From an uncultured delta proteobacterium (GTDB taxonomy: Bacteria; Myxococcota; Myxococcia; Myxococcales; Myxococcaceae), in the NCBI GenBank assembly GCA_963771175.1, contig CAVYSY010000046.1, positions 160,001 to 224,000 on the forward strand: a stretch of 64,000 nt of DNA, read 5' to 3'. Below, piece by piece: positions 23,781-45,837 of this stretch (its first letter is position 1; every line of letters starts with the position of its first letter). A model generated the notes under the pieces. It searched no databases, had not been told where the DNA came from, and worked only from the letters and a program-made list of their open reading frames with translations. The position numbers were made by a program, and so were the translations under genes.

Positions 23781-26700
23781 CTATGAGACTCCCGCGGTGG
23801 TCAGCAGGGCTCGCAGGTGGGCGAGGTAGGCCGAGGACAGTCGCTCGAGGGTCTCCGCGCGATGGATGTTCTCGCTGTAGGCCCAGGCCACGTGGAAGGT
23901 GCCCTCGGAGACGTAGGCGGTGATGTCCAGCACGCGGGAGCGTGGGCTGCGCGGGCTGCGCTCGGGGCCGATGGACTCGGAGGCCGGACGGAGCGGGGCG
24001 TCGCCGGAGCGCACGAGATCGAAGTGGCCCAGGTAGTTGAAGCACACCTCGGTGCGGGGCAGCCGCGCGAGCCGTTCGCGCACGGTGGCGTCCTGGCTCA
24101 GGTAGCGCAGGATGCCGAAGCCCACCCCGCGGTGAGGCACCGCCTGGAGTTGCTCGCGCACGGATTGGAGCAGGGCGCTGGCGGAGGCGCCAGCGGGTGC
24201 GTCCAGCACGATGGGGCTGAGCGAGGTGAACCAGCCCACGGTGCGCGAGACCTCCACGCCTTCGAGGATGGACTCGCGGCCATGGTTGTCCAGCTCGAGG
24301 AGATGGGACTGGCGGCCGGTCCACTCCGAGAGCGTGAGCGTGAGCGCGGCCAGCAGCACGTGGTCCACATGGATGCCGTGCACCTCCCGCATCCGCTGCA
24401 GCAGCACGCGCGTCTCCTCCTGGGTGAGCGAGGCCTCCACCACGCGCGTGGAGCCATCCAGGTTGAGGCCCTCGGGCATGTCGCGCGGAATGGGCGCCAC
24501 CCGGCTGTAGGCCTCCGAGAGCCAATAGCCGAGCTCCTGGCGGGCCTTGTCGGACTGGGCGTACTCGGAAAGCCGCCGTGCCCATTCCTGGTAGGACGTG
24601 CTCTTGGGGGGATGCCGCGGCGTCTGTCCCGCGCCGAGCTGCTCCCAGAAGGTCTGCAGATCCTCCATGAGCACGCGCCAGGAGATGCCGTCAGTGGCCA
24701 GGTGGTGGATGATGAGGAGCAGCCGCCCGGGCTGCTCCGCTCCCAGGTCGAAGTGGGCCACGCGCATCAGCGGGCCCTGGGAGAGCTCCAGGCTCGTCTG
24801 GAGCGAGGTGGCGATCCGCTCCAACTCCCTGGGACGCTCGGCGGAGGGCAGTGCGGCCAGGTCGTAGTGGCTGAAGGGGACGTCCGCCTCGGGGGCGGCA
24901 TAGGACTGCTCCCATCCGGACGGGCCCTGGACGAAGCGCAGGCGCAGCGCATCGTGGTGCAGCATCAGATTCCGCACGGCCTCTCGCATCTGCTCCAGGG
25001 AGAGCCGGCGGTGCACCTCGAAGAGGAAGGCCTGGTTCCAGTGATGGCGATCCGTCGGGTACAGCTCGAAGAAGCGGCTCTGGACGGGGGTCAGGGGCAG
25101 TGAGCCGGACACGACCTCCTGGGGCCTCTCTCCGCGGCTGCCCGCGCGGGTGGCGAGCTCGGCGAGCGTCTGGCTCGCCACGATATCGAGCGGAGTCAGT
25201 TGCAGCCCGGCCTGGATGGCCTTGGCCACGACCATGATGCTGAGGACGGAGTCTCCGCCCAGCTTGAAGAAGTTGTCGCCCGTGCCCACGTGCTCCACTC
25301 GCAGCACCTGCTTCCAGATGTCGGCCAGAATGCGCTCGGTGGGCGTGTGGGGCTCGCCGCCGCTGGCCAGCGTGGAGGTGTAGGCGGTGGGGGCGGGCAG
25401 GGCCTTCCTGTCCACCTTGCCATTGCGCGTGAGAGGCAGGGCTTCCAGCACGACGAAGGCACCAGGCACCATGTACTCGGGGAGCAGGTGCGAGAGGCGC
25501 TCGCGGAGCGGCTCCACGTCCAGCGGCTGGCCGGAGTGGGGCGCGAGGTAGGCCACGAGCCGCTTCATTCCGGGCTGGTCCTCGCGAGCGAGCACCACGG
25601 CGTCACGCACCTCGGGCTGGTTGCAGAGGACGGCCTCGATTTCGCCCAGCTCGATGCGGAAGCCGCGAAGCTTCACCTGGTTGTCGACGCGGCCGAGGAA
25701 CTCGAGGGCTCCATCGGGCAGGCGGCGAACGAGATCCCCCGTGCGGTAGACGCGCTCTCCGTCGAGAAGGACGAAGCGCTCGGACGTGAGCTCGGGACGG
25801 CCGAGGTAGCCGCGGGTGACGCCACGGCCACCAATGAAGAGCTCACCGGGGACGCCCACGGGCACGGGCTCGCGCTGGTCATCGAGGACGTGGAGGGTGG
25901 TGTTGGCGAGGGGGAAGCCCAGCGGAACGGTGGGCGCGGGCTTGTCCGAGAGCTGGGGCGGAATCGGCCAGGTGAGGACGCCGATGGTGGTCTCGGTGGG
26001 GCCGTAGTGGTTGATGACGCGGCAGTCCGGTGCCAGCGCCTGCACGCGCTCCACCAACTCCCAACGCGAGGCCTCGCCGCCGAAGACGAGGCGCTGGCGA
26101 GGCAGCACCTGCTCGGGCCTGGAGGCGGTGAGCAGCGCCGTCATGTGCGAGGGGACAATCTTGAGGCAGTCGATTCGCCGCGAGTGCATGTACTCGGCCA
26201 TGGACTCGGGATTGGTGCACCGCTCGTCGGAGATGATGTGGAGGGAGCCTCCGGACGCCAGCGCGGGGAAGACCATGGTGTTGCCCAGGTCGGCGGCGAA
26301 CGTGGAGACGGTGGCGTAGCTGAGGCCCGAGGGGACGTCGAGGACCCGCGAGATGCCGGCGAGGTAGTTGGAGAGGTTGGCGTGGGTGATGCCAACGCCC
26401 TTGGGCTTGCCCGTGGAGCCAGAGGTGTAGATGACGTAGACGAGGTGCTCGGGCTGGACGGAGCTGGAGGGATTGGCGGTGGCGTAGCCGGAGAGCTGCT
26501 TCCACTGGGTGTCGAGGCAGAAGACGTGCGCCTCGTTCGCCGGGAGGCCGGCGCGCAGACTCTCCTGGGTGAGGAGCACGGAGAGGCGCATGTCCGACAT
26601 CATGAAGGACAGGCGCTCCTCGGGAAGGCCCGGATCCATGGGGAGATAGGCGCCGCCTGCCTTGAGGATGGCGAGCAGGCCCACCAGGAGATCGATGGAG

Positions 26701-42900: not shown

Positions 42901-45837
42901 GGAGATCTGCTCGGCGTTGAGCTCCTGCTCGTCGATGGCGTCACCCCAGGCCTCGCCCGGGGGCGCGGGCACCACGTATGCCACCAGCCGCGGCTGGCCC
43001 GGTGCGTCCTCGCGCACCACCGCCACCGCCTCGCGCACCGCCGGGTGCTCCTCCAGGTGCGTCTCGATCTCACCCAGCTCGATGCGGAAGCCACGCACCT
43101 TCACCTGGTGGTCGACGCGCCCGAGGAAGCGCAGCGCGCCGTCCGGCAGGTAGCTGGCCAGATCCCCCGTCCGGTACAGGCGCGCTCCGGGCTCGCCGCT
43201 GAAGGGGTTCGGCACGAAGCGCTCGGCCGTGAGCTCCGGGCGGCCCAGGTAGCCGAGGGCCAGGCAGTCCCCGCCAATGTAGAGCTCGCCGGGCACGCCC
43301 ACGGGCACGGGCCGCAGGTGTCGGTCGAGCAGGTAGACCCGGGTATTGGCGATGGGGCGCCCGATGGGGATGCCCACGTGGGCATCCGGCTCCGGACTGC
43401 CCGCGGGCAGCGCGAAGAGCGTGGCGGTGATGGTGGCCTCGGTGGGGCCATAGGCGTTGATCCACCCGAGCCGATCCCCCGTGAGCGCTCGCCACGCGGA
43501 CAGCTGCTCCGGCGAGGCCCTCTCACCGCCCACGACGACCAGCCGCACACTCGGAGGCGGGAGCGCGCGGTTGAAGGTGGCGTCGACGACCCACTCGTGC
43601 CAGTAGGCCGTGGGGATGTTCAGCACCGTGAGCCGCTCTTGTTCCACCAACCGCAGGAACTCGGCCACGGAGGGCAGGCGCTCGAAGGGCAGCAGCACCA
43701 GCGTCGCCCCACTGGCCAGCGTGGGGAAGATCTCCTCCAGCGAAATGTCGAAGCTGATGGAGGTGCACTGCAGGATGCGGTCCTCCGGCGTGAGCCGGTA
43801 GGTGCCACGGATGGAGGTGACGTGGTTGACCAGGCCGCGGTGAGACAGCAGCACGCCCTTGGGTTTACCCGTCGAGCCCGAGGTGTAGATGACGTAGGCC
43901 GGATGGGCCGAGGTGACCGGGGGCGTCGGCGGCAGCGGGCTCTCCGAGTCCAGCACCGTCCGGTCCCGGTCCAGTGCGAGCACTCGCAGCTCCTGGGTCG
44001 GCAGCCGCTCCAGCAGCCGCTCCTGGGTGAGCAGCACCGTGGCGCCCGAGTCCCGCAGCATGTAGCGCAGCCGCTCCCGCGGGTAGCCCGGATCCAACGG
44101 CAGGTACGCGCCGCCCGTCTTCAGGATGCCGAGCAGTCCGATGAGCAGCTCCAGCGACCGCTCCATGCAGATGCCAGCCAGCTGACCCGGCCCCACTCCC
44201 AGCCGCGCCAGCGCGTGCGCCACCTGATTGGCCCGGCGCTCCAGCTCTCCGTACGTCAGGCGCTCCTCGCCACACGTGACGGCCACGGCCTCCGGCCTTA
44301 GCCGGGACTGCTCGGCGATCAGCTCGTGGATGCAGCGCTCGCGCGGGTACTCCGCCGAGGTGGCGTTCCACTCGCGCAGCACCTGCTCCAGCTCGTCCCG
44401 GGACATCAGCGACAGCTCCGAGAGGCGCACGTCTGGAGCCGCCACCACCTGCCGCAGCACGTTCACGAAGTGCTGCTGGAGGCGCCGCACGGTGGCGCCC
44501 TCGAACAGATCGGTGTTGTAGGTGAAGGCCAGCTCCAGCCCATGCTCCGCCGCCGTCACCGCCAGGGAGAGATCGTATCGGGCGAAGTCCGGCTCGAGGG
44601 GCCGTTGGCGCAGGCGGAGACCCGGCAACTCCCACGTATTCCGGGGGTGCTCCTCCAGCTCGAAGGTGACCTGGAAGTAGGGCGTGTAGACCAGGCTGCG
44701 CTCCACCTGGAGCGCCTCGACCAGGTGCTCGAAGGGCATGGCCGAGTGCTGGAGCGCGAATTGGTGTACCTCGTGGGTGCGCGCCAGCAACGCGCGGAAG
44801 GAGGGATCCCCGCGCAGGTCGCCCCGGAGGACGAGCATGTTGCCGAACCAGCCCAGCGCCCCACCGCTGTGCGCGTCACGCAAGCTGGTGGGGGTACCGA
44901 TGCACAGCTCCTCCTGGGCCGCATAGCGGTGCAGCACCACCTGGAACGAGGCCAGCAGTGCGTCGAAGAGGCTGGCCCCCTCTCCACGGGCGAGCGCCGC
45001 CAGCCCCTCCGCGAGCTCCCGCGGCAGCGGTGTTCGCAACGTGGCGCCGTTGTACGTCTGCACCACCGGCCGGGCATGATCCGTGGGCAGGGCGAGGAGC
45101 TGTGGCACGCCCTCCAGGGCCTTGCGCCAGGCCTCCACCTGCTCCCGGGCCTCGGCGGAGCGGAGCCACTGGTTCTGCCGCTCGGTCAGGTCGGCATACC
45201 GCGGCACCGGGGCCATCGCCCCGTCCTCCCGCGCGGCGTAGTGCGCGACCAGCTCGTCCACCAGCACGGGCACCGAGCCTGGATCGCAGATCATCTGATG
45301 CAGCGCGAGCAGCAGCACGTGCTCCTGCTCGTCCAGCCGCACCAACGTCGCGCGCAGCAGCGGTCCCTGCTCCAGATCGAACGGGTACAGCGCCTCGGTG
45401 CGCACCAGTTCCGCTTCTCGCGAGGCTCGCTCGGCGAGGGGCAGCCCGCGCAGGTCCACCTCGACGAAGGGGAGAGGCAGCTCCGGCTGGACGAGCTGCA
45501 CGGGCTGACCCTCGAGCGCCGTGAAGCGGGTGCGGAGGATCTCATGCTTCCGTGCGAGGGCCTTCAGGGCGCGTTCGAGCTTCGCGGAGTCCGCAGGGCC
45601 ACTGAGCTCCAGAAGGACGAGCTGGTTGTGGAACGGATTGTTCCGCTCCATCTGATCCAAGAACCAGAAGCGCTTCTGTCCGGGCGAAACAAAAACCGAG
45701 TGAGGCCGGCCTGAAAGAGACCGGTTCTGATTGCTGGCGGAGGCCAAGCGTGCTCCCTGTTTTCTTGTAGATTGAGACCGGGATCCGACGGCGTCGCGCG
45801 AGACGATCGAATCGGTGGTCGCGGCAATAGTTGCCAA
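34823..45837 (-). CDS. NRPS A: C*(degenerate)-A(Arg/basic)-nMT-T / C-A(Ile)-T / C-A(Ile)-T; frameshifts at ~41389 and ~35856
   Basis: C1 motif HQMICDP; A1 code DIENVGAITK; MT (LEIGCGTG, INSVLQHFP, VGDVRS) inserted between A8 and A9; GGHS T domains; A2/A3 code DAFFLGVTFK. Start codon uncertain. Confidence 0.88.

Follow-up and report, generated by a model that had tools for sequence, protein, structure and literature searches.

A conserved two-gene, six-module nonribosomal peptide synthetase of a Myxococcaceae-like bacterium, predicted to build an isoleucine-rich peptide and lacking a built-in release domain

The 64,000-nucleotide stretch of DNA analyzed here (the window; contig CAVYSY010000046.1 of an uncultured Myxococcaceae bacterium, positions 160,001 to 224,000 of the forward strand, with a G+C content of 64-71%) carries two adjacent genes for a nonribosomal peptide synthetase (NRPS), which we call NRPS A and NRPS B. 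Both lie on the minus strand, as do all NRPS features given below, and positions are counted from the first letter of the window. A preliminary description, made from the sequence alone, had placed an NRPS at 45837-23781. The region is real: between 45843 and 23781 it consists of five long overlapping stop-to-stop frames (45843-40519, 41849-35730, 36358-34823, 34746-29245 and 29744-23781), all five of which match the Pfam families Condensation, AMP-binding, AMP-binding_C and PP-binding, and the first of which (45843-40519) additionally matches methyltransferase families. A tblastn search of the window with module 2 recovers an unbroken series of condensation-adenylation-thiolation (C-A-T) modules with four changes of frame. 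One of the four is the boundary between the genes, where a TGA stop codon (34825-34823) is followed by a 94-nt spacer and the ATG of NRPS B at 34728; the other three are single extra bases inside domains.

In read-through proteins built with an X at each frame break, neither NRPS A nor NRPS B contains a stop codon apart from the shifts. NRPS A (modules 1-3; 34823..45747) is about 3640 aa long after reading through two +1 frameshifts, and is defined by its frames, its Pfam matches and its colinearity with intact orthologues. Counted from the first TTG of the open frame, at 45837, it would have 3670 aa; that position stands as the edge of the region, but the likelier start is the TTG at 45747, since this codon has GGGAG 5 nt upstream and corresponds to the annotated start residue of the Myxococcus landrumensis protein. 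NRPS B (modules 4-6 and a terminal epimerization (E) domain; 23781..34728) has 3648 aa after reading through one +1 frameshift. Frameshift 1 (41385..41388) is a single added base that immediately follows GGHSLLATQVI in T1, where the Corallococcus terminator orthologue reads ...ATQVISRVGR... unbroken. Frameshift 2 (35855..35858, at about 35856) adds a G to the coding strand immediately past the GGE of A3, and frameshift 3 (29496..29499, at about 29499) adds a G to it upstream of the A4 core of A5; neither lies in a homopolymer. When the DNA of the four paralogous modules is aligned, each of these last two shows as a one-column gap, being absent from the three other paralogues.

The two proteins form a multimodular linear (type A) NRPS of repeated C-A-T modules. 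NRPS A reads C1-A1(N-MT)-T1, C2-A2-T2, C3-A3-T3, where N-MT is an N-methyltransferase domain, and ends in a 30-residue acidic tail; NRPS B reads basic 40-residue N-terminus, C4-A4-T4, C5-A5-T5, C6-A6-T6-E. In order, this amounts to six A, six T and six C-type domains and one E domain, and both domain order and motifs reproduce the six colinear modules in two proteins that had been described before. The HHxxxDG motif is intact in the five elongation C domains (C2-C6) and in E, all six T domains carry the phosphopantetheine serine motif (GGHSL in T1-T5, GGDSV in T6), and cores A3-A10 are found in every A domain. The modules downstream of the first are module 2 (38097..41249; C2 with HHIVSDG, A2 with the specificity code DAFFLGVTFK, and T2), module 3 (34916..38060; C3 with HHIASDG, A3 with DAFFLGVTFK, T3, and frameshift 2), module 4 (31489..34608; C4 with HHIVSDG, A4 with DAFFLGVTFK, T4), module 5 (28308..31446; C5, A5 with DAFFLGVTFK, T5, and frameshift 3) and module 6 (25143..28265; C6 with HHIVSDG, A6 with DLTKVGHIGK, and T6 with GGDSV).

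Module 1 departs from this pattern in its C domain and within its A domain. Its condensation-like domain C1 (44368..45696; Pfam Condensation, 2.7e-83) carries HQMICDPG in place of HHxxxDG, and the replacement of the second histidine by glutamine is kept in 5/5 orthologues. C1 is also the least conserved domain, with 69.8% identity to C. terminator. Its best relatives in the PDB are the LCL-type C domains of Txo1/Txo2 and TycC6 (192-252 bits), ahead of the D-donor C domains of SrfA-C and TycB1 (85-93 bits) and the starter C1 of CDA (64 bits), a ranking that points to LCL ancestry. Judged by its sequence, C1 is thus a catalytically dead, decayed elongation-type domain ahead of a loading module; with C1 dead, module 1 would load the chain. 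We considered and rejected a lipo-initiation starter C domain at this position, as glutamine replaces the second histidine and the CDA starter C1 scores 64 bits against 192-252 for LCL-type domains. A1 itself is divided into an N-terminal part with cores A1-A8 (42958..44325; code DIENVGAIT(K)) and a C-terminal part with A9 and A10 (NGKVDR), the latter together with T1 (GGHSL, carrying frameshift 1) at 41301..41667. Between A8 and A9 lies the methyltransferase domain (41668..42957; Pfam Methyltransf_12/25/11), placed there by GRVDHQVKVRG at residue 906, the domain itself at about residues 961-1390, and LPEYMVP/NGKVDR after it, so that the embedded N-MT previously noted in module 1 is borne out. 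The insert has a single PDB match (5WMM, 6.6e-42) and contains EIGCGTG, which includes GCGTG, and NELTCFRY. GCGTG is the S-adenosylmethionine motif and NELTCFRY a further methyltransferase motif, and the likeness of these motifs presumably points to N- rather than O- or C-methylation.

The last domain of NRPS B (23784..25115) follows T6, where an E domain had been expected, and carries HHLATDG, DNHGRE, SRTVGWFT and FNYLG, the last three being E-specific motifs. GrsA 5ISW, TycB 6TA8 and TycA 2XHG are among its 10 PDB matches at E<=1e-15, and it scores 104.5 bits against TIGR01720 (cut-off 74.2). By motif set, structure matches and family score alike it is a genuine epimerase domain; a terminal hydrolytic C-like domain of the crocacin type was considered and rejected, given the complete set of E motifs. 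NRPS B ends 6 residues past this domain, with no thioesterase (TE), reductase (R) or extra C domain. Terminal release domains (TE, R or terminal C) are likewise absent from NRPS A, and PF00975 is matched neither in the two NRPS genes nor in the three NRPS B orthologues (P0001-P0003).

The chain would pass from NRPS A to NRPS B. This order is supported by C4, which has a normal HHIVSDG motif and is orthologous to the C4 of other species (75-77% identity), by the gene order, and by complementary charges at the facing termini. The acidic C-terminal tail of NRPS A, a putative docking element (34826..34915), has a net charge of -7 over 30 aa, and the basic N-terminal 40 residues of NRPS B, its putative partner (34609..34728), have a net charge of +6. 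The acidic tail recurs in 4/5 orthologues and the basic N-terminus (+5 or +6) in 4/4, in keeping with the A-to-B docking that had been proposed from charge. A predicted complex of the NRPS A tail (50 aa) with the NRPS B N-terminus (55 aa) received a score of 0.00, which is evidence neither for nor against docking. The reverse order, B to A, is rejected, because C1 is dead, whereas C4 is an elongation domain of the usual LCL type with orthologues in other species.

Specificity codes were read from a MAFFT alignment of the six A domains, anchored on A4 (FD), GGE and YGPTE and numbered as in GrsA. They are DIENVGAITK for A1, DAFFLGVTFK for each of A2, A3, A4 and A5, and DLTKVGHIGK for A6, with the tenth residue, lysine, located in NGKVDR in all six domains; these strings are identical to those reported in the preliminary description. 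DLTKVGHIGK is a canonical code assigned to the aspartate of surfactin, which agrees with the earlier Asp call for A6; the string itself has no occurrence in the searchable literature. The register of the alignment was cross-checked by a HMMER alignment of A1 to the first A domain of ApnA (4D4G), which returns DVESIGVIAK, the code given for ApnA A1 of that strain in Table 2 of PMC5311044. DAFFLGVTFK stands at the Ile positions of the cyanopeptolin synthetase Oci, with minor Val, in Table 1 of PMC2533009, and PMC13122637 gives it for Ile/D-allo-Ile, as a code common to aeruginosin-type pathways. These published codes agree with the earlier Ile call, and A2-A5 would accordingly be predicted to activate Ile, perhaps with some Val.

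The substrate of A1 is harder to name. Its best single-domain match in the PDB is ApnA A1 (4D4G; 430 bits, against 380 for the next), which is also the sole PDB match at E<=1e-20 to its 131-residue pocket segment (84 bits). The A1 code is identical to the ApnA A1 code DVESIGVIAK at 5/10 positions and to DVENAGVVTK of OciB-A4 at 6/10 (D, E, N, G, T and K), the latter being the code at the Ahp position of cyanopeptolin in the table of PMC2533009. Counting those of the window and of a partial Archangium metagenome-assembled genome (MAG) protein (P0127), 50 A domains are at least 50% identical to A1 and have D-x-E-N-x-G-(A/T/G/V)-x-x codes; about 43 of the tabulated database relatives at this identity read D-x-E-N-x-G-A-I-T. 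In the searchable literature DIENVGAITK and its variants have no occurrence, the Oci table is the one NRPS source that came up for related codes, and no substrate is assigned to the D-x-E-N-x-G clade as a whole. We suggest a long polar or basic residue, with Arg as the leading guess rather than a prediction. The Arg proposed in the preliminary description is not established, as the nearest solved domain is Arg/Tyr-bispecific and the code is 6/10 like an Ahp-position code; the portrayal of the peptide as zwitterionic hinges on Arg and is therefore not established either.

The synthetase is not unique to this genome, being found in at least five other species of three genera. Among species-representative genomes, a scan found one orthologous locus, in C. 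terminator (L001; 78% identity), where NRPS A is a single open frame of 3625 aa (9968-20845) and NRPS B starts 45 nt later. Among the 120 protein matches listed for NRPS A, four are orthologues (C. terminator P0241, M. landrumensis P0242, Archangium gephyra P0243 and Myxococcus faecalis P0244; 75-78% identity, 3591-3718 aa, all intact), the next match being at 48% or lower. Three orthologues stand among the 120 matches listed for NRPS B (C. terminator P0001, Myxococcus sp. MH1 P0002 and M. landrumensis P0003; 77-80%, 3636-3644 aa, intact), followed by a match at 51%. The partial Archangium MAG protein is 83% identical over A1. The A1 code reads D[IV]EN[IV]GA[IV]T in 5/5 orthologues and in the MAG protein, and 4/4 orthologues have both the A6 code DLTKVGHIG and the E-terminal end; no thioesterase Pfam domain is found in the NRPS A or NRPS B orthologues listed. 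The orthologous pairs of Corallococcus, Myxococcus and Archangium thus share the two-protein, six-module layout (about 3600 + 3640 aa), the dead C1, the N-MT, the E end without TE, the A1 and A6 codes and mostly the A2-A5 codes, and differ in being 75-80% identical and free of frameshifts. A. gephyra differs further: the codes of its modules 2 and 3 are DAFFLGGTF and DALHLGCTF, and its NRPS A tail is not acidic.

No product reported for the orthologues was found in the searchable literature, where the papers listed for the host species concern taxonomy and predation; nor was an Ile-Ile-Ile nonribosomal peptide from myxobacteria. The earlier statement that the peptide matches no known myxobacterial product agrees with the open literature, in which we found no product for this cluster, the MIBiG and BiG-FAM collections lying outside that check. 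Cyanobacterial and other loci (L002-L015) match module 1 at only 35-43% identity, and were rejected as a guide to A1 because their A codes are unrelated (such as TARDVGIIG and DAWFLGNVV). As a separate observation, an A domain with the code TARDVGIIG occurs in 12 of these 14 non-orthologous loci (L011 being a named exception), including one of Anabaena sp. UHCC 0187 (L007), next to at most a few further A domains each, with Leu- or Ile-like or DTEDIGTIV codes; these loci look to be a peptide-synthetase family that recurs in cyanobacteria and has no relation to the NRPS described here.

Within the genome, A2-A5 are 96-98% identical to each other, and their A-domain DNA (28242-41279) is 94-99% identical over 1.5 kb, while each is 74-79% identical to its positional orthologue. 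C2-C5 are about 60-64% identical to each other and 77-79% to their orthologues, and are thus position-specific. The C. terminator A2, A4 and A5 reach 99-100% identity among themselves. Since the A domains are alike within a genome, have diverged from their orthologues and are flanked by position-specific C domains, they appear to have been homogenized within each genome, in what we read as a clear case of concerted evolution by gene conversion. Composition divides the locus differently. The coding strand of modules 2-6 (23781-41300) is C-rich, with a GC skew of -0.10 to -0.34 and 52-68% C at third positions, and module 1 (41389-45714), the neighboring MFS gene and other genes have a GC skew near zero; the same sharp break is present in C. 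terminator. This break suggests separate histories for module 1 and the remaining modules.

From the domain order, motifs, codes and conservation observed at the locus we infer a pathway that covers substrates, chain order, methylation site, release and export. Module 1 would load the chain, with A1 activating a long polar or basic residue X (best guess Arg) and the embedded N-MT methylating X on T1. Modules 2-5 would each add Ile (perhaps some Val) through the four A domains kept near-identical by gene conversion, the chain crossing from the acidic NRPS A tail to the basic NRPS B N-terminus. Module 6 would add Asp, and the terminal E domain would epimerize it, leaving N-Me-X-Ile-Ile-Ile-Ile-D/L-Asp bound to T6. 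Off-loading would fall to a factor encoded elsewhere or to chemistry of the Asp thioester itself, and the divergently transcribed MFS protein would export the product. In our estimate it is somewhat more probable than not that this conserved linear NRPS, with two genes and six modules in a Myxococcaceae-like bacterium, works along these lines.

Several observations weigh against this proposal: the 'Ile' codes vary in some orthologues (DAFFLGATF, DAFFLGGTF, DALHLGCTF); the A1 code is about as close to an Ahp-position code (6/10) as to an Arg/Tyr code (5/10); thioesterase, alpha/beta-hydrolase and beta-lactamase families are matched by none of the 68 flanking open reading frame (ORF) translations in the window, which leaves the pathway incomplete as read; and the three NRPS insertions are all +1 and none lies in a homopolymer run, as would be compatible with real mutation. 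The last point, along with the fact that the frameshifted 1710-aa ORF is the window's own database protein (P0125, on a 293-kb contig), so that the shifts are present in the record, would fit a pair of pseudogenes in which three genuine single-base insertions inactivate both proteins and no peptide is made. We consider this unlikely. Unrelated genes within the same 64 kb are also broken, by at least three or four additional frameshifts, which points to sequence quality. A plus-strand region at 18519-23759 looks like one kinase-sensor gene of about 1750 aa broken by two frameshifts: it holds a Ser/Thr kinase (18519-19460), an AAA_16 match (19267-20184) and a GAF-HisKA-HATPase segment (19908-23759) in three overlapping frames, and its G+C signal at third positions switches with the frames, at about 19.2 kb and again at about 20.0 kb. 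A protein kinase domain on the minus strand (54488-56717) is divided between two frames, the break near 55529 falling precisely between Pfam positions 93 and 94, and a plus-strand methyltransferase gene (51741-52653) is probably split at about 52044-52054, with profile positions 2-35 in one frame (weak, E 6e-4) and 29-95 in another. Moreover, the NRPS orthologues are intact, the genes here have no stops apart from the shifts and no other defect, all their catalytic motifs are preserved, and frameshifts 2 and 3 fall in the 1.5-kb segment repeated fourfold at 94-99% DNA identity, which is hard to assemble or polish. On these grounds the three shifts are probably sequence errors and the genes intact in the organism. 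Residue 1 is a more evenly balanced matter: we give roughly even chances to a peptide of the same architecture that starts with something other than Arg, be it Gln or a Glu-derived residue (as at the cyanopeptolin Ahp position), Lys/Orn, or Tyr/homoTyr. The six residues shared by DIENVGAITK and OciB-A4 DVENAGVVTK, the 50-domain clade to which the searchable literature assigns no substrate, and the loading of Arg, Tyr, Lys, Phe or Trp by ApnA A1 variants with similar codes, as given in PMC5311044, all speak for such a residue, although Glu239 and the top whole-pocket similarity to ApnA A1 (84 bits) favor a guanidinium, amine or phenol side chain.

Release admits wider alternatives. Because no release function is found in the genes or their flanks, the line could also end in a product other than a free linear acid. 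With E as the last domain, and no C domain after it to pick out the D-epimer, the release step itself would need to be stereoselective. NRPS B might instead hand its D-Asp-peptide to a further NRPS outside the window that starts with a D-donor-specific C domain, giving a product of more than six residues. In GrsA/TycA and SrfA-A/B the subunit that comes after an E-ending one opens with a D-specific C domain, and no terminator is present here. We nevertheless regard such a continuation as very unlikely, because NRPS B stops 6 residues after E without the extra C-terminal helix of COM donor domains, the only other nearby NRPS N-terminus is the dead, LCL-like C1, and the neighboring genes are a histidine kinase gene in convergent and an MFS gene in divergent orientation. 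A second alternative draws on stand-alone penicillin-binding-protein (PBP)-type cyclases of the SurE family, which serve TE-less, E-terminated NRPSs and need a D-configured C-terminus and an L-configured N-terminus, according to PMC7459860 and PMC11735501. A distant SurE-like, D-specific enzyme acting in trans would release a head-to-tail cyclic hexapeptide in place of a linear acid. The T-E end without a TE in cis and the predicted L-start and D-end are what the surugamide/desotamide systems have in common according to these two papers, and the E-terminal, TE-less design recurs in 4/4 NRPS B proteins. The idea is nonetheless improbable in our view: the systems described in PMC7459860 carry an adjacent cyclase, whereas the beta-lactamase family is matched by none of the 68 ORF translations in the window; the nucleophile would be an N-methylated secondary amine; and the examples in the cited papers are actinobacterial. 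Besides these, a hydrolase encoded elsewhere could free the linear peptide proposed above, or, by inference from peptide-thioester chemistry, the aspartyl thioester could release itself through a cyclic anhydride. More broadly, these genes could belong to a TE-less, E-terminated NRPS family of Myxococcota with a release logic not yet described for the phylum, either a distant D-specific trans-acting PBP-type cyclase giving cyclo(N-Me-X-Ile4-D-Asp) or self-release of the aspartyl thioester via a cyclic anhydride, with E setting the stereochemistry. We put this forward as a long shot; if true, the four gene-converted Ile modules would give its products an unusually hydrophobic core.

Upstream of NRPS A, on the plus strand, lies a divergently transcribed MFS transporter gene (45911..47188; Pfam MFS_1, with NCBIfam H+ antiporter and EntS-like matches below cut-off), which is syntenic in C. 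terminator at 86% identity and probably encodes the exporter of the product. The region of about 160 nt between the two genes (45748-45910) is a divergent, locally AT-rich promoter region; the C. terminator spacer is about 1.2 kb. The MFS gene is followed on the plus strand by a gene for a DUF5916 protein with a signal-peptide-like N-terminus (47195..49894; syntenic in C. terminator, 85% identity), which may or may not belong to the cluster. This protein is an unlikely release enzyme, given its N-terminus and the lack of a hydrolase family match. A small thioredoxin-family ORF (49903-50391, minus strand) lies between the DUF5916 and DUF2804 genes. The annotated parts of the rest of the window (34 kb outside the NRPS and its two syntenic neighbors) hold the convergent kinase-sensor gene and thioredoxin, DUF2804, methyltransferase, TetR and unrelated metabolic genes. 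At 1-11107 there are two class I/II aminotransferase-family genes, an MMPL transporter, a PAP2 phosphatase, a methylmalonyl-CoA-mutase-like gene with a separate B12-binding ORF beside it (9651-10166), a methyltransferase and an HMGL-like lyase. This block may be a lipid or branched-acyl-CoA locus, and it lacks synteny with the NRPS in C. terminator over the span covered by L001.

If expressed, the synthetase would make a small amphiphilic peptide whose N-methylated head is polar or basic, whose core is four Ile residues and whose tail is D-Asp. Conservation of the synthetase in at least five further species, drawn from three genera, suggests that its function has been maintained. For NRPS specialists, the interest lies in the conserved absence of a release domain behind the terminal E, the conserved dead C domain before the loading module, and the concerted evolution of the A domains. 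Otherwise the cluster takes its place among the very numerous orphan NRPS clusters of myxobacteria, ordinary in kind and odd mainly for its lack of built-in release.

Among known systems, the loading module has its closest parallels in interrupted, N-methylating A domains. In the A-M-A protein TioS (5WMM), the methyltransferase is inserted between A8 and A9, as in module 1 here, and the Txo1 loading module reportedly makes the N-methylated N-terminus of teixobactin; the present NRPS differs in having a relic C domain ahead of its loading A domain. ApnA A1, the Arg/Tyr-bispecific domain of an anabaenopeptin synthetase, shares Glu239, Gly301, Ile330 and the PTAYWH stretch with A1, and differs at 5/10 code positions (A1 here has Asn278 and Thr331) and in having no N-MT insertion. 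At its other end, the synthetase resembles the surugamide/desotamide NRPSs, which also end in T-E without a TE in cis, start with an L-residue and end with a D-residue, and for which 4-10 modules are reported in PMC7459860, a range that includes the six modules found here. The TE-less, E-terminated module and the predicted L-start and D-end that accompany SurE dependence are all present in our system, and an adjacent cyclase is absent within the window. In the surugamide/desotamide systems a beta-lactamase-fold cyclase adjoins the NRPS and the hosts are actinomycetes, whereas here none of the 68 flanking ORF translations matches a beta-lactamase family, the host is a myxobacterium, and the peptide is predicted to have an N-methylated N-terminus and an acidic C-terminal residue.

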